Shown piece by piece: positions 12,895 to 28,898 of a DNA stretch of 64,000 bases (positions within the stretch are counted from its first letter, which is position 1; the number at the start of each line of letters is the position of its first letter). Under the pieces are notes generated by a model. It was given only the letters and a program-made list of their open reading frames with translations, ran no database searches and was not told where the DNA came from. Position numbers and translations under genes: made by a program. This DNA comes from Escherichia phage AV126. The stretch lies in the sequence record OR352956.1. One strand, written 5' to 3'.

Positions 12895-14355
12895 GTGCCA
12901 AAAATAGTCACTTGGGAACAATATAAAACAGATATAAAACAAGCTTATCAAGGTAAGTCTTGGACTGTTGTAGATTATATTGAGCCGTGGAACGGCAATA
13001 AAACTAAACTTAGATGCATCTGTGCTCTGCATGGAGAATGGAAAACAACAAGCATAAATACCGCTAAACTAGGGAGGGGTTGTCCAGAATGCGGTAGGGA
13101 GATTATAAGTAAAGCAGTATCTATAAACAAATCAAAAACCTGGGAGCAATATAAAGAAGAAGTGCAAACCGCTTACAATCAGGCAGGTAAGTTTTGGACT
13201 GTTACAGGATGGCACGGAGAATGGAAAGGATGGAATACTAAACTGGTTTGTTGTTGTGCTTTACATGGGGAGTGGAGGTCTACTTCTATATCTTCTGCGA
13301 AAAACGGGAGTGGATGCAGGAAGTGTATGGGAGAAGCAAACAGAGAAAGAACATCGATTGCATGGGAGAAACATAAAGAAGAAGTAGAAGAAGCTTATAA
13401 AGAAAAACCCTGGATTGTTAGAGGCTATGTGGAACCGTGGAACGGTTCCCGCACTAAGTTGATTTGTGAGTGTAAGGTTCATGGTCAATGGTGCACTACC
13501 ACTGTAAACAGTGCTAAACAAGGGACTGGATGCTACAGTTGTCAAAGAGAAATGACGAAACAAAGGAATACAATGGAGGATAAACAACATGTTGAAGATT
13601 TTATAAAAGCTTGTCCTGATAATGTAGAGCGTAAATATTATCGTAGCGATAGAGTAGATAGATTAGGTCGTCAGGTTTACTGGATTGTAGAATGTCCTAT
13701 ATGTGCAGAGGATGATTATTGTAAAGAAGGCTTATGCGATAATAAATTTGAGATGAAGATGAGTCATTTGAAAAGGGGTGGCCTTCCTTGCCGTTGTTCT
13801 AAATATTATCATTACACTCCTGAACAATGGGCCTACCGTATGACCAAAGCTTGCCAGGAACGAGGGGATCAATTTATAGGATTCATTGATAAGGTAAGCA
13901 ATAACAGCAAGTTTAAATATCTATGTAGGGAGCATGGAGAGCAAACGATCACACCTACCGATTATCTCAATGGGAAAGGTTGTCCAGGCTGTAAGAACAG
14001 AAATATGCAAGAATTTTACATCAATATTATTCTTGATGAGTACGGAGAAGACACGGGAGCTTACAAGTTGGGGATTGCAAAGGACAGTGATATCAGGATC
14101 AAAGGGCAGAATGCAAACAACAATTACTTTATGCGCCGTATAGCATTGTTCGATCTGCCGTCCTACCAAGCTTGCAGGGCGTTAGAGAGTAAGCTAAAGT
14201 CTAAGACTGATCAGATTCTACCGTCTATTGGCTGTGTAGAACGCTTGCACATGAAAGATGGTCATAGTGAAACCTTCCTGCGCGAGGATTTGGCTATCGT
14301 CTTAAGTGCTATCAACCAAGCAGGTGGAATAATGAGAGAGGAGGAAACATGTTAG
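12895..14355 (+). CDS. protein with tandem Cys/His zinc-ribbon-like repeats (486 aa)
   Basis: GTG start after AAAGGGGGAGG; three or more repeats of a ~70-aa module W..YK..AY....W.V..Y.EPWNG..TKL.C.C..HGEW.TTS.N.AK.G.GC..C. Confidence 0.55.
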   Translation: MPKIVTWEQYKTDIKQAYQGKSWTVVDYIEPWNGNKTKLRCICALHGEWKTTSINTAKLGRGCPECGREIISKAVSINKSKTWEQYKEEVQTAYNQAGKFWTVTGWHGEWKGWNTKLVCCCALHGEWRSTSISSAKNGSGCRKCMGEANRERTSIAWEKHKEEVEEAYKEKPWIVRGYVEPWNGSRTKLICECKVHGQWCTTTVNSAKQGTGCYSCQREMTKQRNTMEDKQHVEDFIKACPDNVERKYYRSDRVDRLGRQVYWIVECPICAEDDYCKEGLCDNKFEMKMSHLKRGGLPCRCSKYYHYTPEQWAYRMTKACQERGDQFIGFIDKVSNNSKFKYLCREHGEQTITPTDYLNGKGCPGCKNRNMQEFYINIILDEYGEDTGAYKLGIAKDSDIRIKGQNANNNYFMRRIALFDLPSYQACRALESKLKSKTDQILPSIGCVERLHMKDGHSETFLREDLAIVLSAINQAGGIMREEETC

Positions 14356-14714
14356 TTGACGTTCAAATTATGCGCAACGAAAGAATGGACTTCTTTGAAG
14401 CAGTAGAGAAACATCTGATCCGATGGGACTATGAATTTGTTCCTGCTGGATGTGGACCAGTAGAGCATTTAGCGGAAGACGACGATGTATACATGATCAT
14501 TCGTCAAGTGTACCAGACAGACCAGTGTGAAGAAACTCCCGAACTGATTTTGTTTGAGTGTAAAGATCTTGCAAAATATTTTGACTATGGCGGAAAAGAG
14601 GGTCATAATCTCTCCAGATACAATAAACGTCTACTTATCTTAGACTACATGCGGAACAACAAACACAAACTCATCGACGCAGACGCAGTTTATGGCTACT
14701 GGTGGATGGACTAA
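14349..14714 (+). CDS. hypothetical protein (121 aa)
   Basis: ORF with GAGGAGG SD. Confidence 0.5.
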   Translation: MLVDVQIMRNERMDFFEAVEKHLIRWDYEFVPAGCGPVEHLAEDDDVYMIIRQVYQTDQCEETPELILFECKDLAKYFDYGGKEGHNLSRYNKRLLILDYMRNNKHKLIDADAVYGYWWMD

Positions 14715-14727
14715 CAAAGGAGAAACT

Positions 14728-14907
14728 ATGGCACGTTTAGCAGATCATGAAATCTTTAAACCTATTCTGAACCACTATGATGAACTTAAAGCAGTGTTGG
14801 ATTGTTATAGAGAGGATGAAGAACGTTTGGAAGTCAATCTTAAGATAGTTCTGATGAAAGCTTTTCAAGACGGGCAAGCTAAAGTTTTAGAAGGCATGAA
14901 AAAATGA
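14728..14907 (+). CDS. hypothetical protein (59 aa)
   Basis: ATG at 14728 after AAGGAGAAA. Confidence 0.45.
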   Translation: MARLADHEIFKPILNHYDELKAVLDCYREDEERLEVNLKIVLMKAFQDGQAKVLEGMKK

Positions 14908-15446
14908 GAATAACTGATGAATATGTATTCTTCTTTTCACATAAAGATGTGTTTAGTAATTGGTATATTGCACCCTTTACAGAAACTGAACTAGGTTACA
15001 ATGAGACTTTCTGTTGTGTTGAGCAATATATGATGTGGCGTAAGGCTTTGCTGTTCAAGGATCATGCGATTGCAGCAGCTATCCTTGATCACTCAACTAT
15101 ACGTGACAACGAGAGGAAACAAGCATACTACAAACGTATGGGTCGAGCGGTATCTGGTTTTAATAATGATATGTGGGAAGAGAACCGTGAGCGTATTGTT
15201 ATGCGAGGCTTATGCTTGAAATATGTACAGAATCCAGATTTGTATGCAGACTTACACCTTTACCAATACAAAACGTTTGTTGAAGCAAGCCCCTACGATA
15301 AGGTTTACGGAATTGGAATGGGGATGTATGAACCAGGGGTGCTAAACCCTGCTACCTGGAAAGGGCAGAATCTTTTAGGCAAATATCATAATAAACTGAT
15401 CGAAATACTTTTCCCAGACAAAATACCGCAAAGACGATATTTGTGA
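14904..15446 (+). CDS. NADAR-domain protein (YbiA/DUF1768-like, 180 aa)
   Basis: FFFSHKDVFSNWY..., CVEQYMMWRKALLF, RMGRAV and C-terminal EASPYDKVYGIGMG match the NADAR pattern. Confidence 0.7.
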   Translation: MRITDEYVFFFSHKDVFSNWYIAPFTETELGYNETFCCVEQYMMWRKALLFKDHAIAAAILDHSTIRDNERKQAYYKRMGRAVSGFNNDMWEENRERIVMRGLCLKYVQNPDLYADLHLYQYKTFVEASPYDKVYGIGMGMYEPGVLNPATWKGQNLLGKYHNKLIEILFPDKIPQRRYL

Positions 15447-15501
15447 TATTTTAACTTTTTTCATTTTTAGAACAAAGGTGTCACTTTGTAGCACAGAAAT
15501 A

Positions 15502-15537
15502 AGGCTCCTACAGCACCGTAGAGAGCCTGTTATTTTG
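15502..15537 (+). terminator. rho-independent terminator candidate
   Basis: AGGCTCCTACAGCACCGTAGAGAGCCT hairpin followed by GTTATTTTG, downstream of NADAR gene. Confidence 0.55.
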
Positions 15538-15670
15538 TCCTATACAAACCCTTGTCTTTTTCAGTTTGCATCACTAGGATTCGATCTGAGTGGGTTCCTG
15601 AAGGTCTGCCAATAAGATTAAAGGTTATCTCAAATTCCCACTACCTATTATCTCAAAAATCCCTCAAATT

Positions 15671-15737
15671 ATTTAAACTTTTTAAGAATTTACAAAAGTG
15701 AAAGTTGAAAACCAAAATTTAAAGTTTAGGAAAAATT
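15671..15737. repeat. ~67-bp AT-rich direct repeat, copy 1
   Basis: ATTTAAACTTTTTAAGAATTTACAAAAGTGAAAGTTGAAAACCAAAATTTAAAGTTTAGGAAAAATT; about 80% identical to copy at 15809-15875. Confidence 0.7.
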
Positions 15738-15808
15738 ATCTTAGAATGTTAGATACAAACAAAACTCAAAAGTCAAGGAAAATTTTAAAAATTTTGCGCG
15801 CCCACAGT

Positions 15809-15875
15809 ATTTAAAGTTTTTTTGCTTTTACAAAAATGAAAGTACAAAAGCAAAATTTAAAGTTTACAAAAATTT
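15809..15875. repeat. ~67-bp AT-rich direct repeat, copy 2
   Basis: ATTTAAAGTTTTTTTGCTTTTACAAAAATGAAAGTACAAAAGCAAAATTTAAAGTTTACAAAAATTT. Confidence 0.7.
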
Positions 15876-15908
15876 ATGCAGGTGGGAATGAGAAGAGTTC
15901 TCATGTGG

Positions 15909-15935
15909 AAATGCAAATGATAATGATTCGCATTT
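15909..15935. promoter_or_regulatory. Fur-box-like palindromic operator
   Basis: AAATGCAAATGATAATGATTCGCATTT; core TGATAATgATTcgCA matches the 7-1-7 Fur consensus TGATAATnATTATCA at 12/14. Confidence 0.45.
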
Positions 15936-15951
15936 AAGTTTATAAACGAGA

Positions 15952-15993
15952 TTGATTCTTATTCAATAAGGTAAATGATAATCATTCTCATTT
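15952..15993 (+). promoter_or_regulatory. sigma70-like promoter overlapped by Fur-box-like operator
   Basis: TTGATT -35, 17-nt spacer, ATGATA/GATAAT -10 region; operator AAATGATAATCATTCTCATTT (13/14 to 7-1-7 Fur consensus) overlaps the -10. Confidence 0.5.
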
Positions 15994-16221
15994 AGAGAAT
16001 GACGCGCAGGGGCGGTGTTTGTCTCGCGCTCCCGTGTCCCCTCGCCATGTAATAAGAATAACAGATCCAACCAGGAAAGCAAGCGATTATTTTATCTTTA
16101 CATTTCTTTACAAATATATAGCGCCCAGCCTACCGGCGATCAACCTTCCAACCAGCGCCCCTGGTATGTTAGCCCCGCCTTTACGCCGTGGGGTGGCGCT
16201 TCCTCTTCTGTATGTAAAACA

Positions 16222-16262
16222 GTATAAGCCCGATCCCTGGGCTTGTCAAGATTATTTTTTGT
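16222..16262. terminator. hairpin plus T-run (possible bidirectional terminator)
   Basis: AAGCCCGATCCCTGGGCTT then GTCAAGATTATTTTTTGTTTTC; just beyond stop of minus ORF 16252..16518; minus sense also reads TTGACA-17-TATACT. Confidence 0.4.
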
Positions 16263-16518
16263 TTTCTTGCCAGGATAGGACACCTAACCAAAAATGCATA
16301 TCGCCCCGCGCCGCTGGCGGGATCTTGCTTTCCCCGCCGCCACTGCAAGCCCATAAATAACCATCAGCAAACGGATCAAAATGTTCTATCTCTTCCACTT
16401 TATGATCGCCCAGGTTGAGAACGGTTTCAACCTTTAAGCCCGTTGCGCTTGCTACCTGGTGCACCGTGCCGCCTTGCCAGCCCAATGAGTGCATAAGGTG
16501 TAATGTAGTATTTGTCAT
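16252..16518 (-). CDS. hypothetical protein (88 aa) in GC-rich island
   Basis: Only minus-strand ORF in the plus-oriented region; GC-rich codon usage unlike flanks; GGCGATACC upstream of ATG. Confidence 0.45.
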   Translation of the reverse strand: MTNTTLHLMHSLGWQGGTVHQVASATGLKVETVLNLGDHKVEEIEHFDPFADGYLWACSGGGESKIPPAARGDMHFWLGVLSWQENKK

Positions 16519-16626
16519 GGTATCGCCCTTTCTTTGATGTGCGCCCTGGTTGGCGCGGTAGAAAGATAATAGCCCTTTTCTTTATATATAGCAAGCAAAA
16601 AGAAAATAAAAAAGATTGAAAAATGG

Positions 16627-16686
16627 TTGACGTTAACCAGGCGGCGGCGTAGTATTCATCTTATAGGGCGGCAATGGTGCCGCTCA
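16627..16686 (+). promoter_or_regulatory. PeSL-like cassette 1
   Basis: TTGACG / TAGTAT / hairpin GGGCGGCAATGGTGCCGCTC; ORF at 16705. Confidence 0.55.
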
Positions 16687-16704
16687 CTATTTGGAGTTAA
16701 GATC

Positions 16705-16902
16705 ATGGCAACATTGCACATTGTGGCGAAAGCTGGACAAATCAACGTAGTGGTAAACGGTTTTACTGAGTTCAGTCACCCCCAGGATGATCATGAAACG
16801 GTTTTATCTTTCATTGATTCCCTGTTAGAAATGGGAGTCATTACAGAAGACCAGCACGCTACAAAATGCAAGCGCGTTAATCAAATTGCAGGAATAGAAT
16901 AA
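16705..16902 (+). CDS. hypothetical small protein (65 aa)
   Basis: ATG at 16705 after GGAG, directly downstream of PeSL-like cassette. Confidence 0.5.
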   Translation: MATLHIVAKAGQINVVVNGFTEFSHPQDDHETVLSFIDSLLEMGVITEDQHATKCKRVNQIAGIE

Positions 16903-16908
16903 AAACTA

Positions 16909-16968
16909 TTGACAACAAACAACAACCTGATAAGATGTATCACATAGGGCGGGAAGTGGTTTCCCGCT
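16909..16968 (+). promoter_or_regulatory. PeSL-like cassette 2
   Basis: TTGACA / TGaTAAGAT / hairpin GGGCGGGAAGTGGTTTCCCGC; ORF at 16993. Confidence 0.65.
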
Positions 16969-16992
16969 CGTAACAGAAGAGAGATTATCATC

Positions 16993-17265
16993 ATGGCATC
17001 ATATAGCGCAACAATGATCGTAGCTGGCACAACTGGTAAACCTATGAGCGGTGGCGGATCTTTCGCTAATATCAATATTGACGGGCGTTTATCCCTGGAC
17101 GCAGCGATCGCTATTGCACGGGAAACATTTAAGAAAGAATGTAATTTCAACAAGCAAGATTATCTCGGTTTCGCTATTGAAAAAACCGCGCGCTTTGTTG
17201 ATTATAAAAGCCCGAAAATGGTTGATACTACACTAAAAGCGCAAGATGTAGCGTTTTTGCTTTAA
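16993..17265 (+). CDS. hypothetical protein (90 aa)
   Basis: Downstream of PeSL-like cassette. Confidence 0.55.
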   Translation: MASYSATMIVAGTTGKPMSGGGSFANINIDGRLSLDAAIAIARETFKKECNFNKQDYLGFAIEKTARFVDYKSPKMVDTTLKAQDVAFLL

Positions 17266-17268
17266 GGC

Positions 17269-17325
17269 TTGACATTAACGAATAATTTGTTAATATGTTA
17301 CATAAAGCGGGAATAGTTCCCGCTA
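17269..17325 (+). promoter_or_regulatory. PeSL-like cassette 3
   Basis: TTGACA / TAATAT / hairpin AGCGGGAATAGTTCCCGCT; ORF at 17342. Confidence 0.65.
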
Positions 17326-17341
17326 TTTGTAAGGTGGTAGA

Positions 17342-17599
17342 ATGTTTTACATCAAATTAAAAGGTCACGTGATCGCGTTCAAAGATAACGCTTTTTACAG
17401 ATTAGCAAAATATGCGTTAATACATCCCCACTATGTTTATATAAGGGGGCGTGATGAAATAAATATCTTTGATCAAACAACATGCGAGAACATCGAGATC
17501 CGCAAGGTTGGCGTACGTGATTATCGTACATCTTTCTACCCTTGCAAGGATTCAGCAAGTCTTTTTAAAGTATGCCAATTGTTGAAAAAAGGTGGTTAA
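17342..17599 (+). CDS. hypothetical protein (85 aa)
   Basis: Downstream of PeSL-like cassette. Confidence 0.55.
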   Translation: MFYIKLKGHVIAFKDNAFYRLAKYALIHPHYVYIRGRDEINIFDQTTCENIEIRKVGVRDYRTSFYPCKDSASLFKVCQLLKKGG

Positions 17600-17600
17600 T

Positions 17601-18158
17601 ATGGGCCGCGAATATGTGATCCAGTCTTGGGTAAAACATGAAGCAGATGATCCGCGCATCATTCCCGATCATCTTATCGATGAATCCACGGGATATAGCG
17701 GTGAGCAAATAGGTAACAGATTAGCACGTAGTAACGGCAACGTAAAAGCGCGTTATGTGCGCCCTGGCTGGCTGGCAAATGGTAACGCTGATTTATCCAG
17801 TGCGGAAGATGCAAGCGACGGCGCGAAAGATAATCCTTTGTACAAAATTGATCCGGCTTTTCGTGTCCTGGATGAATACCCCAGCAAGATAGCGGCGCTT
17901 GATGAAGCATTGGAAAGTAAGCGCATCACCTGGACCGCTTACAACATGGCAAAAAACGTACTTGATGGTAAATTGATTCAAGCTGAAAGAAAATTAGCCA
18001 AAATTGCAGCCATAGCCCAGGAGGAAGACGAGGAGACAACGGAAGAGGAAGAGTACGAAGAGATCCCGCCGTTGTTGTGTATTGATGCTTTTCCTGATTA
18101 TCAGCCGACAGAGGAAGAAAAAAGGATCGCACTAGAAAACTTTGAAAATAGTCTTTGA
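17601..18158 (+). CDS. hypothetical acidic protein (185 aa)
   Basis: ATG at 17601 after AAGGTGG; its TGA stop lies inside the next TTGACA -35. Confidence 0.55.
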   Translation: MGREYVIQSWVKHEADDPRIIPDHLIDESTGYSGEQIGNRLARSNGNVKARYVRPGWLANGNADLSSAEDASDGAKDNPLYKIDPAFRVLDEYPSKIAALDEALESKRITWTAYNMAKNVLDGKLIQAERKLAKIAAIAQEEDEETTEEEEYEEIPPLLCIDAFPDYQPTEEEKRIALENFENSL

Positions 18159-18212
18159 CATATCGCCGCCACTGGCATAATATTTACCACGTAGGGCGGC
18201 AATGGTGCCGCT
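18155..18212 (+). promoter_or_regulatory. PeSL-like cassette 4
   Basis: TTGACA (contains TGA stop of upstream ORF) / TAATAT / GGGCGGCAATGGTGCCGCTC; peptide ORF at 18241. Confidence 0.65.
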
Positions 18213-18240
18213 CATAGTGAAATTATACAGGAGGTTTACA

Positions 18241-18336
18241 ATGATTAATAAAGAAAATAGCTTGACGGTTGGAACGATTAACGCTATCATTTTCGCCGTT
18301 CCATTTTGGGTTGTAGTAGCGGCTATTATTTTCTAA
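18241..18336 (+). CDS. hypothetical hydrophobic peptide (31 aa)
   Basis: ATG after AGGAGG, downstream of PeSL-like cassette; predicted single transmembrane segment. Confidence 0.35.
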   Translation: MINKENSLTVGTINAIIFAVPFWVVVAAIIF

Positions 18337-18344
18337 AAAATATT

Positions 18345-18406
18345 CTTGACAACGTTTTTTAATCTGATAAGATGTATCACATAGGGCGGCGGAATACTTC
18401 CCCGCC
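18345..18406 (+). promoter_or_regulatory. PeSL-like cassette 5
   Basis: TTGACA / TGaTAAGAT / hairpin; ORF at 18428. Confidence 0.65.
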
Positions 18407-18427
18407 AAAACAAAAAAGGGTAACACA

Positions 18428-18790
18428 ATGAGCAAGCAAATCAATACTATCATGTTTAATCTGGTATCTTTCCGCGATGATATGAAAAATTTACCACGTG
18501 AAACGGTTGATATTCATGTTTCAGCTTATCGCGCCCTTATTGATATGTTACCGCTAAAACGTGATCAACATGCCGCTAATATGATGCTTAATGCTATGCT
18601 TAAAAAGATGATTCAAACGGATCTTACTCTGGCATATGAGTATCAAGGGCGCTTATATGCTACTTACAACAAAGCGGTACCTGGTCTGGGAAGTACCGAA
18701 GAGTTGCACGGCTTAAACCTGGATCAGAACACTTGGGATAGTATGCGCCGCGTTATGGTATGGGCCGAAAGCGGTAAAATTTACGAATAA
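18428..18790 (+). CDS. hypothetical protein (120 aa)
   Basis: Downstream of PeSL-like cassette. Confidence 0.55.
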   Translation: MSKQINTIMFNLVSFRDDMKNLPRETVDIHVSAYRALIDMLPLKRDQHAANMMLNAMLKKMIQTDLTLAYEYQGRLYATYNKAVPGLGSTEELHGLNLDQNTWDSMRRVMVWAESGKIYE

Positions 18791-18796
18791 AAACGG

Positions 18797-18856
18797 TTGA
18801 CACTGTTTAAAATGCTGGTATAGTTTATCACATAGGGCGGGAAGTGGTTTCCCGCC
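18797..18856 (+). promoter_or_regulatory. PeSL-like cassette 6
   Basis: TTGACA / TATAGT / GGGCGGGAAGTGGTTTCCCGCC; ORF at 18879. Confidence 0.65.
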
Positions 18857-18878
18857 AACAATGAAAAAGGTTATCATC

Positions 18879-19244
18879 ATGGCTATTAATATTAATGTTT
18901 CCGCTTATGCTACCCTGGCTAACACGGCTAAAATTGAATTATCCAGCATTGAGGCGGTGCATATTAGCGCCCGTCGCTGGTTTCAACAGTCCTACGGTAA
19001 CACGTATTTTTCTTTAATGGTTGACGTTGAGATCGGCGGTAAACTGATCGAGGTGGTTAACGTTCCGTTTCAATATGGCTATGGTGATCATTTTGATACC
19101 GTCGCCCTGGAAGAATTTAGCAAGGTTATCAACCTTGAGGGCAAGGAATTTTCACGCGGCGCGTATCTTTCCCGTTTTTGCCGTGACAATGGGATCACTG
19201 TATACAGTCATGCAAGCGATGTTAAACGTAAAAAAGATCTATAA
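18879..19244 (+). CDS. hypothetical protein (about 121 aa)
   Basis: Downstream of PeSL-like cassette; ATG 18879 preferred over 18861. Confidence 0.5.
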   Translation: MAININVSAYATLANTAKIELSSIEAVHISARRWFQQSYGNTYFSLMVDVEIGGKLIEVVNVPFQYGYGDHFDTVALEEFSKVINLEGKEFSRGAYLSRFCRDNGITVYSHASDVKRKKDL

Positions 19245-26410: not shown

Positions 26411-26476
26411 GATTATACAAGGGGCGCACTAAGCGCCCTTTAACGTAAAGAAATGTAAATAATGCGCTATCCCCTA

Positions 26477-27012: not shown

Positions 27013-27218
27013 GCCTGAACAATGTTGATAGCTTTCGCCTATGAAAAACCGACACAGAACAAAACTGAATAAATCGCGGTATCGAGCTAATCAACCATCA
27101 AACGAATAACCATACATCCCAGGGCAACAGGCTGTTAGAGAGCTATTTAGAGCGGTTAAAATCGATCTACAACCAACAACAAACCATCAAAAACACCCTT
27201 TTACCTCCTTTCTAGTGC

Positions 27219-27237
27219 AATGATAACCATTATCATC
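27219..27237. promoter_or_regulatory. Fur-box-like palindrome
   Basis: AATGATAACCATTATCATC; 13/14 match to TGATAATnATTATCA. Confidence 0.5.
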
Positions 27238-27580
27238 TACCCATGATTATCTATGCAATATAAGCGCATAATTATAATGTTGATAATAGTTCGCAACAAC
27301 TAACCAACAAACAACATAAAACAATAAGCAAACTAATCATAATCAAAGGAATAATAGCAAGATGATTGATAACGACAAACAATCAAACCATGATGAATAC
27401 TAAGCAAGATAACGATAACACGACAAAACAACCAACTAACGAACAATAACAAACGAAACCATTAAAAGATCAACTATTAGCAAAATAGTGTCTATTGCCA
27501 TAATAGTGACTGAATGAAATCATTACAAAACGAATCATTCCAAGGATCATCATTAGCACGCTACGCCGGACACGTAGCGA

Positions 27581-27708
27581 GCTAATAATAAGCCAACTAC
27601 ACCCCAACAATCATAACCATCGGTGACGGTTATTTCTTGTTACTGCGTAGCTTGCAATAATTGCAAGCGTAATGACGCTTACACTTATTGCGCTGGCTTA
27701 TTATTAGC
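27581..27708. repeat. 14-bp perfect inverted repeat pair flanking ~100 bp rich in palindromes
   Basis: GCTAATAATAAGCC at 27581-27594 and its reverse complement GGCTTATTATTAGC at 27695-27708; internal palindrome CTTGCAATAATTGCAAG (27651-27668); adjacent hairpin GCTACGCCGGACACGTAGC. Confidence 0.55.
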
Positions 27709-27990
27709 ATTATATGTAATTACCAAGATCATAACATTAGCGCAATAACAATAATCATTACAATAATTACATAAGGAAACAATTAGCATAGCAATAATTA
27801 TGGGGGCAATGGGAGGATGATTATCATCATTCCGATACATTGCACACTATGCACATAATAAGATAAAAAGCAATAATCTTGGGGGCGAAATGTTACCGCC
27901 ACAGGCGGGAATGTTGAGCATCTTCTCTTAAACGTAAATAAAATCAGAAAATTCTTGATTTATTTTAGTTTTTATGTTAATAAACGTTTA

Positions 27991-28008
27991 AATAATAATC
28001 ATTCTCAT
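27991..28008. promoter_or_regulatory. Fur-box-like site
   Basis: AATAATAATCATTCTCAT; shares the 14-mer ATAATCATTCTCAT with the site at 15973-15993. Confidence 0.45.
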
Positions 28009-28148
28009 ATAAATAATAGTCTGCTTGTCATGAGCGGGATTAGTTGACATTGTTCCGTCATATGATGAAGTTGCCAAGCCATTGATAAATAAGTGTTTGT
28101 GTGATTTATAATCAAGTGGCCCACCTTGTCGCTACGTTGGCATGAGCC

Positions 28149-28190
28149 TTGCATAAGTCATTGAATACGAATGATAATTATTCTCATTCG
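28149..28190 (+). promoter_or_regulatory. sigma70-like promoter overlapped by Fur-box-like palindrome
   Basis: TTGCAT -35, ~18-nt spacer, GATAAT -10; 21-bp near-palindrome GAATGATAATTATTCTCATTC (13/14 to 7-1-7 Fur consensus) over the -10. Confidence 0.5.
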
Positions 28191-28529
28191 CATGATATTT
28201 GGGAATTGTCGCTGCGTGGACCTGACGGCCCGAAAATTCGCGTTAAGCACTTCTTACGTATGCGCCATGATTTTTGCCATATCATATTGATTCTATTAGA
28301 TATTCTTGCCATGATTGCCATGAAACAGGGTGTCCCGAAATAATCTCTCCCCGTAGATATTTTGGGTTACTTTTTATACAAGAGTGGGGTGTCAAAAATA
28401 ATCGGTATATATGGGATAATTGATAGGAATCCCCTATGATAATTCGATTGTAATTCCCTAAGATTGATCGTATGATGTTGGTGATTGATGATTGCCATGA
28501 AAGATGGCTAACGATGAGAGGAGATTATC

Positions 28530-28898
28530 ATGCAAGAGAGTAAAAATATTCCGTTGAGCAGTGCAGCATTGATTCAATTCTACAAAGCATGGATGGCTGA
28601 TCACTACAGCATGGATCGCACGGAGAATGGACTGTGTTTATGTATTCATCATTTTGTGCGATCTCATCTTATGAAAGATGTGGAGAATCCCCGATGGTAT
28701 GCCGACATAATAGATAGCTTGTTGTTTGAGATGCGTGCTCAGTTCAAAGACGCTGGCATTGATACGTGCGCACCCTTCAACACTGGATATGCGGATTACT
28801 TGATTGAAGTGGAAGATAAAATGTGTCACCTGAATCCACTTCGCATTCAGTGGGTGAAAGATCGCATTGAAGATGCAAATAATGCTTGCATTGAATAA
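28530..28898 (+). CDS. paralogous family A protein, copy 1 (122 aa)
   Basis: GAGAGGAG SD; shares FY..W..GLC..PF..H.N..R..WVKDR pattern with ORFs at 31968, 35294, 38592, 39897. Confidence 0.6.
   Translation: MQESKNIPLSSAALIQFYKAWMADHYSMDRTENGLCLCIHHFVRSHLMKDVENPRWYADIIDSLLFEMRAQFKDAGIDTCAPFNTGYADYLIEVEDKMCHLNPLRIQWVKDRIEDANNACIE

Follow-up and report, generated by a model that had tools for sequence, protein, structure and literature searches.

Genomic setting of the repeats

The window analysed here is a 64,000-nucleotide stretch of Escherichia phage AV126 (record OR352956.1), and the element in question is a set of AT-rich direct repeats at 15665-15877, in a gap between two gene blocks. By its sequence the window comes from a Phapecoctavirus of the phAPEC8 type (Stephanstirmvirinae), a myovirus with a genome of ~150 kb; the repeat region is 97-98% identical to that of phAPEC8, DE16, ESCO5 and many others. 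The gap spans ~1.2 kb (15447-16627) and is poor in open reading frames (ORFs). On its left ends a + strand operon, the last gene of which encodes a NADAR-domain protein, stops at 15446 and is followed by an annotated terminator. On its right begins a long series of small early genes, each with a sigma-70 promoter and then a 5' stem-loop.

A triplet of tandem units

The first-pass annotation of this DNA had described two ~67-bp units of about 80% identity. That pair is real. A repeat finder aligned 15665-15739 with 15803-15877 (75 nt, 81% identity, spacing 138), and an ungapped scan paired 15670-15739 with 15808-15877 at 58 of 70 positions with a score of 34. In 200 dinucleotide shuffles of 15540-15999 the corresponding score averaged 9.9 (sd 1.4) and reached 17 at most, so the repeat lies far above chance. 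The number of units had to be revised, however, since there are three of them and not two:

15665-15731, + strand: unit U1, with box 1 ATTATTTAAACTTTTT and box 2 TTGAAAACCAAAATTTAAAGTTT; 77-80% identical to U1 of phiWec188/179
15732-15802, + strand: middle unit U2, degenerate, AAATTATCTTAGAATG...CAAAACTCAAAAGTCAAGG..., ending with an A/T tract and GCGCGC
15803-15877, + strand: unit U3, with box 1 GTATTTAAAGTTTTTTT and box 2 ACAAAAGCAAAATTTAAAGTTT; 78-79% identical to U3 of phiWec and equivalent to unit 3 of phi92

When 15662-15880 is cut into three pieces, U2 aligns with U1 and U3 as well as with the units of phi92 and phiWec179. It is homologous to unit 2 of phi92, whose match begins at window position 15783, and is 57-60% conserved with respect to phiWec. 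Judged from these alignments, the repeat pair represents the outer members of three tandem units of ~70 bp (spacings 66-72 bp), the middle one of which has decayed.

The motifs of the units are specific to this locus. A search for ATTTAAAGTTT that allowed one mismatch gave 15671 (with the mismatch), 15717, 15809 and 15855, and no exact copy exists elsewhere within the 64 kb; TTTACAAAARTGAAAGT is likewise confined to the two outer units. The TTTAAA(C/G)TTT start given earlier for each unit is correct within a base or two. The same holds for the position of the ATTTAAAGTTTA landmark, but this motif, which had been taken as the end of the unit, stops at 15728 and 15866, ~10 nt before the unit ends given in that annotation. 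We also confirmed that the surroundings are AT-rich (GC 0.26 across 15600-15900), that the only ORFs there are short (20-49 aa) and non-conserved, and that Fur-like palindromes follow the repeats, at 15887-15994.

Conservation among related phages

Eight other phage records were checked for the triplet: phiWec179, phiWec188, phi92, alia, Klebsiella phi1_175008, rV5, CR9 and KpS8. All eight carry it at the same location, with unit spacings of 63-78 bp. The span from the first to the third unit is 138-142 bp in every phage checked (138 in the window, 139 in phiWec), however this length is divided: phi92, alia (Justusliebigvirus) and Klebsiella phi1_175008 have spacings of 67 + 75 bp, and among the Vequintavirinae rV5 has 65 + 74, CR9 78 + 63 and KpS8 74 + 67 bp. 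The unit sequence itself differs between the subfamilies, being of the TTATTTAAAG type in one and CTCGATCG-ACTTTTCGTTTTC... in the Vequintavirinae. The only stretch common to the two types is the 17-mer TTTTGAAAAYGAAAAGT, which stands in opposite orientation; its score of 29 against a maximum of 25 in 500 shuffles is uncorrected for ~40 comparisons, and the similarity is suggestive only.

Comparison with the diverged relatives phiWec179 and phiWec188 allows us to separate units from surroundings. The outer units are 77-80% identical to theirs and the flanking and inter-unit spacers 46-60% (left spacer 46-49%, inter-unit segment 57-60%), a pattern that marks the units as conserved islands under purifying selection. 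Both outer units of the window contain AAAATTTAAAG, and both outer units of phiWec contain AAATTCTAAAG instead. This parallel change suggests that the unit copies are kept alike, by gene conversion or by a common binding partner.

Because they form conserved islands, keep a fixed triplet architecture and span in two subfamilies and have motifs found only at this locus, the units are, on this comparative evidence, functional cis-elements. They fit a protein-binding array, binding itself being what we infer from the pattern. Conservation in related phages had been proposed as a check on the repeats: every relative examined has a triplet at this place.

Duplex stability and predicted leftward promoters

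In a nearest-neighbour estimate, which does not describe supercoil-induced destabilisation, no 200-bp duplex of the 64 kb is less stable than 15666-15865 (free energy dG -228.0, z = 3.3, GC 0.22). This segment coincides largely with the triplet. To the right of the units, two predicted leftward sigma-70 promoters, P1 and P2, conserved as consensus matches, point at them, so that the triplet lies downstream of both. Their transcripts would be non-coding: no conserved ORF of at least 20 aa was found downstream of the leftward promoters. Since the + strand is C-rich at 16000-16500, a leftward RNA would be G-rich.

A conserved non-coding module

The triplet is one component of a conserved non-coding cis module of ~0.8-1.1 kb, shared by rV5-like phages (Stephanstirmvirinae and Vequintavirinae). 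In the window (~15435-16250) it includes, from left to right, a terminator and TTATCTCAAA motifs, then the triplet, then an array of Fur-like palindromes and last a GC-rich block that is nearly invariant. Besides the three units, its parts are:

15435-15456, + strand: GATATTT left boundary motif, two copies, overlapping the stop codon of the NADAR-domain gene (found by eye, without statistics)
15502-15537, no strand assigned: GC-rich hairpin flanked by T-rich tails on either strand, listed as a terminator in the annotations of phAPEC8 and ASO2A
15625-15657, + strand: two exact TTATCTCAAA motifs, 23 bp apart, the sole exact copies within 64 kb
15887-15994, no strand assigned: three Fur-like palindromes (TGATAAT-N-ATTCTCA type) with a 29-bp period
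15995-16054, minus strand: GC-rich segment that would be transcribed first from P2, with G clusters and a bulged hairpin AUG-GCG-AGGGG / CCCCU-CGC-CAU
16055-16082, minus strand: putative leftward promoter P2, deduced from the alignment, -35 TTGCTT (16082-16077), 16-nt spacer, -10 TATTCT (16060-16055)
16097-16111, minus strand: direct repeat GTAAA-GAAAT-GTAAA (TTTAC-N5-TTTAC on the + strand), 14 nt upstream of the P2 -35
16120-16214, minus strand: near-invariant block of ~95 nt with two hairpins, between P1 and the GTAAA box
16221-16249, minus strand: leftward promoter P1, TTGACA-N17-TATACT, read from 16249 to 16221, 11/12 consensus matches

At the left edge, GATATTT is repeated two to six times in phi92, rV5, CR9, phiTE and Mydovirus-like loci; it marks this edge in all lineages, irrespective of the gene upstream. 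Among the loci compared, it was seen in L007 (~1645-1665), in L013 (~950-1040) and in the upstream regions of L016 and L021. The hairpin at 15502-15537, conserved at 79-82% with respect to phiWec, is the terminator of the upstream + strand operon and likely also a stop for leftward transcripts. A third, degenerate TTATCTCAAA copy (TTATCTTAGA) at 15736 is a perfect match in phiWec, and in Mydovirus-like loci three related (T/A)TATCTCAAA motifs stand ahead of the repeat array.

The GC-rich block (15995-16250) has conserved DNA counterparts of 68-85% identity in 347 phage records. These records extend from Phapecoctavirus to rV5-, CR3-, phiTE-, KpS8- and 4MG-like phages, that is, over Stephanstirmvirinae and Vequintavirinae, and the block is also present in loci L007, L009-L018 and L020-L027. 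The hexamers of P1 are kept in all eight lineages aligned, with a hairpin-forming spacer that varies; P2 reads TTGCAA-N17-TATATT in CR9, phiTE and KpS8, again with hexamers kept and spacer variable. The bulged hairpin at 15995-16054 was read by eye and is recovered in part by RNAalifold; its closing helix is ATAGCGGG/CCCGCTAT in CR9 and phiTE. For the whole GC-rich block RNAalifold gave -17 (plus strand) and -23 (minus strand) over 280 columns, against -5.5 and -7.0 for column shuffles, a signal that we call weak. The near-invariant 16120-16214 is a candidate for a small RNA made from P1 or for a DNA recognition element, with a provisional minus-strand assignment. The ACCAG/CTGGT hairpin has variable loops and one A-T to G-C covariation at its base.

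The GTAAA pentamers are invariant in 18 sequences, with a variable spacer between them. Their arrangement fits the CpxR-type (OmpR/PhoB-family) consensus, which serves as a lead only. The 15-mer GTAAAGAAATGTAAA recurs identically at 26445-26459 on the + strand, 17 nt upstream of an early TTGACA-N17-TATATT promoter; it is a candidate for a host response-regulator site or for an UP-like element. The GTAAA box is overlapped by a third, degenerate version of the first half-unit (ATTATTTTATCTTTACATTTCTTTACAAA, 72%; repeat family D2).

The conserved block also has a history of insertion. In Raoultella phage Ro1 (L026, IMG/VR copy) a gene that probably encodes a homing HNH endonuclease interrupts it after CCGGCGAT; in the left copy the right half is divergent, though with similar hairpins, and a P1-like promoter of its own is present. 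In Klebsiella record OY757067.1 the match overlies a feature annotated as 'HNH endonuclease'. Such cases suggest that the block is a homing target, and HNH insertion fits a strongly constrained target sequence.

From ~16650 of the window onward, the features that phAPEC8 lists as 'PHIRE phage promoters' are GC-rich stem-loops (GGGCGGCAATGGTGCCGC). They follow sigma-70 promoters directly and stand where early transcripts have their 5' ends (L001 5265-5284, 5904-5923, 6793-6812 and others). Other records annotate them as terminators.

The Fur-like array and its counterpart in T5

Relatives carry three to five copies of the Fur-like palindrome. In the window, 15971-15989 matches the 19-bp Fur consensus GATAATGATAATCATTATC at 16 of 19 positions, and the 7-1-7 motif TGATAATNATTATCA, with one or two mismatches, is found at 8 sites where 0.69 are expected. 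A second large non-coding region (27150-28530) surrounds the terminal repeat; Fur-like palindromes stand there at 27219-27236, 27991-28009 and 28170-28188, and 27920-28019 is the least stable 100-bp duplex of the window (GC 0.17).

The array also has matches in T5-like phages. Repeat Region 3 of T5, a ~1.2-kb untranslated region, has been proposed as the injection stop signal (Davison, bioRxiv 10.1101/866236). BLAST of the region of the T5-like phage HASG4 against the module returned a 30-nt match of 96.7% and a 55-nt match of 85%; against the array itself, T5-like Repeat Region 3 yields matches of 27-30 nt with 85-97% identity (HASG4 9.2-10.9 kb, window 15905-16000). Palindromes of the AAATGCGAAT...ATTCGCATTT type thus stand next to direct-repeat arrays, within a large untranslated region, in both. 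The T5-like palindromes AAATGCGAATCATTATCATTCGCATTT and AAATGAGAATCATTCTCATTT resemble Fur boxes; Davison (bioRxiv 10.1101/866236) does not call them so.

Neighbouring genes and homologues of the module

Annotations in the gap conflict among records, one of which requires 'frameshifts'. The genuinely conserved exception is a minus-strand gene for an 88-aa protein (16518-16252, phrog_19316), the sole leftward gene of the long + strand block. Its product bears an N-terminal LGWQGGTVHQVA..TGL motif and has homologues in phi92, phiWec, Klebsiella phi1_175008 and phiTE, and no match in Pfam or PDB. We considered it as the unit-binding factor and rejected it, the gene being absent beside the modules of CR9 and KpS8. 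Other neighbours of the module are the NADAR-domain protein, a CapR-domain endonuclease-like protein and an AAA ATPase; genes for a PIF1/RecD-like helicase and for nucleotide metabolism lie within 12 kb. No Rfam match with E<=1 was obtained in 13000-19000, and the window contains no tRNA or tmRNA.

No homologue of the module was found in 5,426 E. coli genomes. The sole plasmid match, to the Fur-like array region, is CP057073.1, a 137.6-kb E. coli 'plasmid' that is probably an rV5-like phage genome. A host derivation of the units was rejected on these grounds. Near-identical genomes have been submitted under the names of Campylobacter, Acinetobacter, Pseudomonas and 'Dompiswa' phages, which makes these host labels doubtful.

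In the literature searched we found neither a description of the triplet or module nor any report, for these phages, of a transcriptome, a mapped origin or Fur boxes. Annotation of the triplet locus is limited to a 'repeat_region' in a few GenBank records.

Discussion

The first-pass annotation had read the repeats as part of a replication origin or as an array of regulator-binding sites. These readings are supported in part: the units are conserved, locus-specific and of low duplex stability. The GC skew does not turn here, and no linked initiator gene was recognised. We tentatively favour the origin, with a probability of roughly 0.37: the triplet would be the assembly and unwinding zone of a transcription-activated replication origin, an iteron-like site array for which the Fur-like array would serve as gate. 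What speaks for it is the combination of an iteron-like pattern, the least stable duplex of the window and a position downstream of two promoters with predicted non-coding, G-rich transcripts. As in iteron origins, three direct repeats stand at regular spacing, and an AT-rich segment suited to unwinding (15666-15865) adjoins or overlaps them. By analogy, the units look like sites for a factor whose specificity has diverged between the subfamilies under a fixed geometry, which is typical of iteron-initiator systems.

The following sequence of events can be envisaged. Non-coding G-rich transcripts would start leftward at P1 and P2, the latter carrying an upstream response-regulator-type box, cross the Fur-like palindrome array and then enter the triplet. 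At the triplet the DNA would be opened by a phage protein that binds the units and is specific to the lineage, by transcriptional activation, by an R-loop primer or by several of these together, and the opened triplet would admit the phage primase-helicase. Host Fur on the palindromes would gate the opening.

Several observations weigh against an origin. Candidate terminator hairpins, the GC-rich one that follows P2 and a Fur palindrome read from 16003 to 15981, lie between the promoters and the units, so that leftward transcription might stop short of the repeats. The low stability of 15666-15865 is also nearly equalled elsewhere in the window. With ~70 bp and three copies, the units are longer and fewer than classical iterons of 17-22 bp. 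Consensus sites for IHF are absent from the module, and so are those for DnaA: TTWTNCACA has no match in 15400-16650 and 5 in the whole window, where 10.1 are expected. The units show no helical phasing of A-tracts; curvature had been suggested as a check, and AA/TT periodicity at 10-11 bp is lacking: the power peaks at 12.5 bp with 0.92, whereas shuffled sequences gave maxima with a mean of 0.96 and a 95th percentile of 1.59. Among the neighbouring genes we recognised no initiator gene that consistently adjoins the array. Finally, the cumulative GC skew has its minimum at ~9 kb and its maximum at ~45 kb, without a turn at the module; this measure is uninformative here, since the skew follows gene orientation. 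Counted in favour of an origin here is that for rV5 itself skew analysis did not place one, and that its published map shows an unexplained 'non-coding' box (PMC3606486); the nearby helicase and nucleotide-metabolism genes count on that side too.

The units could instead form a regulatory or architectural array that binds a phage regulator, host nucleoid proteins or response-regulator proteins and has no role in replication. It would control or insulate the boundary between the + strand operon and the early cluster, or tune Fur-gated non-coding RNAs. The module lies exactly between these two transcription blocks and adjoins a bidirectional terminator; the conserved, locus-specific units stand beside a Fur-like operator array and near a response-regulator-type box that recurs upstream of the early promoter at 26445. 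The degenerate half-unit copy over the GTAAA box (ATTATTTTATCTTTACATTTCTTTACAAA) hints that the same factor could bind both. On the other hand, the leftward promoters have no gene downstream to regulate, and no convincing rightward promoter exists in or beside the units, where sigma-70-like matches are weak (9/12) and lost in phi92. The span of 138-142 bp, moreover, is constant despite different unit sequences, and such constancy points to a larger nucleoprotein structure and away from a simple operator. We give an array of this kind a probability only somewhat below that of the origin.

The kinship of the palindromes with T5 raises the question of DNA entry: the module might be a pause or anchoring site that holds the genome after a first segment with early host-takeover genes has entered, as proposed for Repeat Region 3, where the same Fur-like palindromes lie beside other direct-repeat arrays. 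Its position would suit such a role, for it lies ~12 kb (~8% of the genome) from the terminal repeat, the interval is full of small early genes each with its own promoter, and Fur-like palindromes recur next to the terminal repeat. Vequintavirinae are furthermore hypersensitive to daunorubicin, as T5-like phages are (PMC13250531). The similarity to T5 is, however, limited to the palindromes, and the module has no DnaA boxes, which are proposed to form the core of the T5 signal. It is placed outside the terminal repeat, 12 kb away, with early genes pointing away from it. Injection in two steps is not on record for rV5-like phages, and even in T5 the proposed function has not been proven. An entry stop is, on balance, improbable.

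It is very improbable that the triplet is a pac or terminase recognition site, a set of promoters or a group of small-peptide genes. Repeated motifs are typical of pac sites, and each outer unit starts a small ORF (MKVENQNLKF... and MKVQKQNLKF..., 33 and 38 aa) and contains a weak minus-strand match of the TTGTAA-N16-AATAAT type. The 329-bp terminal repeat of Schickermooser (PMC6563267), however, maps by homology to 27917-28245 of the window, 12 kb off, and genome ends or a packaging site at the triplet were rejected for this reason; the ETEC-TG record starts at window position 15618, an arbitrary position because the record was circularised, and was rejected as a genome end as well. The small ORFs have no Shine-Dalgarno sequence, shrink to 6-10 codons in phi92 and differ from phiWec mostly by non-synonymous changes, and we rejected them as peptide genes. 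Sigma-70 promoters inside the units were rejected likewise, the promoter-like matches being weak and absent in phi92; the motifs being unique to this locus, the units are not a general promoter class either. Neutral local tandem duplication is scarcely credible: AT-rich intergenic DNA is prone to slippage and the middle unit has decayed, but triplet and span are conserved in two subfamilies despite different unit sequences, and the conservation of the units exceeds that of the neighbouring spacers by 20-30 percentage points.

A broader proposal, which we consider unlikely as it stands, is that triplet, Fur-like palindromes, response-regulator-type box and invariant block together make up an undescribed control point for genome replication or entry, gated by host signals, with Fur reporting iron status and a CpxR/OmpR-type regulator reporting envelope stress. 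If true, this control-point design would be common to rV5-like and, in part, T5-like phages and would explain the enigmatic Repeat Region 3. The common palindromes in any case tie the module to that unexplained injection-stop region.

rV5-like phages (Vequintavirinae and Stephanstirmvirinae) are common therapeutic candidates, which lends the locus practical interest. A precise conserved cis module of 0.8-1.1 kb with discrete parts has been defined, and the three units are its most lineage-specific element. Should the module be an origin, it would offer an engineering handle (phage-dependent replicons, copy-number markers) and a handle on how host iron and stress signals might gate phage replication. 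Repeat arrays in putative origins are already known; what is new is that three long units with a fixed span occur together with a Fur-like array and a response-regulator-type box.

Comparison with known systems

Measured against the E. coli Fur operator, it is the neighbouring array that matches the consensus, not the repeats themselves. The phage consensus, TGAGAAT-N-ATTCTCA, differs from that of the host, and Fur binding is putative.

T5 Repeat Region 3 is likewise a conserved non-coding region with direct repeats and the same Fur-like palindromes, placed ~8% of the genome from an end and adjoining early genes. T5 has, however, paired DnaA boxes in inverted repeats, which the module of the window lacks, as well as nine DRD repeats and 66-bp DRE repeats of unrelated sequence. 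Its region lies inside a 10-kb terminal repeat, whereas the terminal repeat of the window measures only 329 bp and is located elsewhere.

The primary origin of T7 and the T4 origins oriF (uvsY) and oriG (34) consist of a promoter plus an AT-rich DNA unwinding element, and ColE1 RNA II is the precedent of a transcription-primed origin. The window would resemble them in having predicted promoters directed into an AT-rich, easily melted non-coding stretch, in a predicted non-coding transcript that would be G-rich near its start and in the location of the element between gene modules. These origins are not known to have three long conserved units, a Fur-like operator array or a response-regulator-type box, and an R-loop and initiation are only proposed for the window.

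Compared with the iterons of origins, the units of the window measure ~70 bp and not 17-22 bp, number only three, have no cognate initiator gene identified nearby and themselves constitute the AT-rich zone. Lambda ori, T4 oriE and P4 ori/crr, the crr of P4 having two 120-bp direct repeats, nevertheless offer the closest pattern of repeats: like them, the triplet combines multiple lineage-specific direct repeats, conserved spacing and adjoining AT-rich DNA, and its copies seem to evolve in concert.

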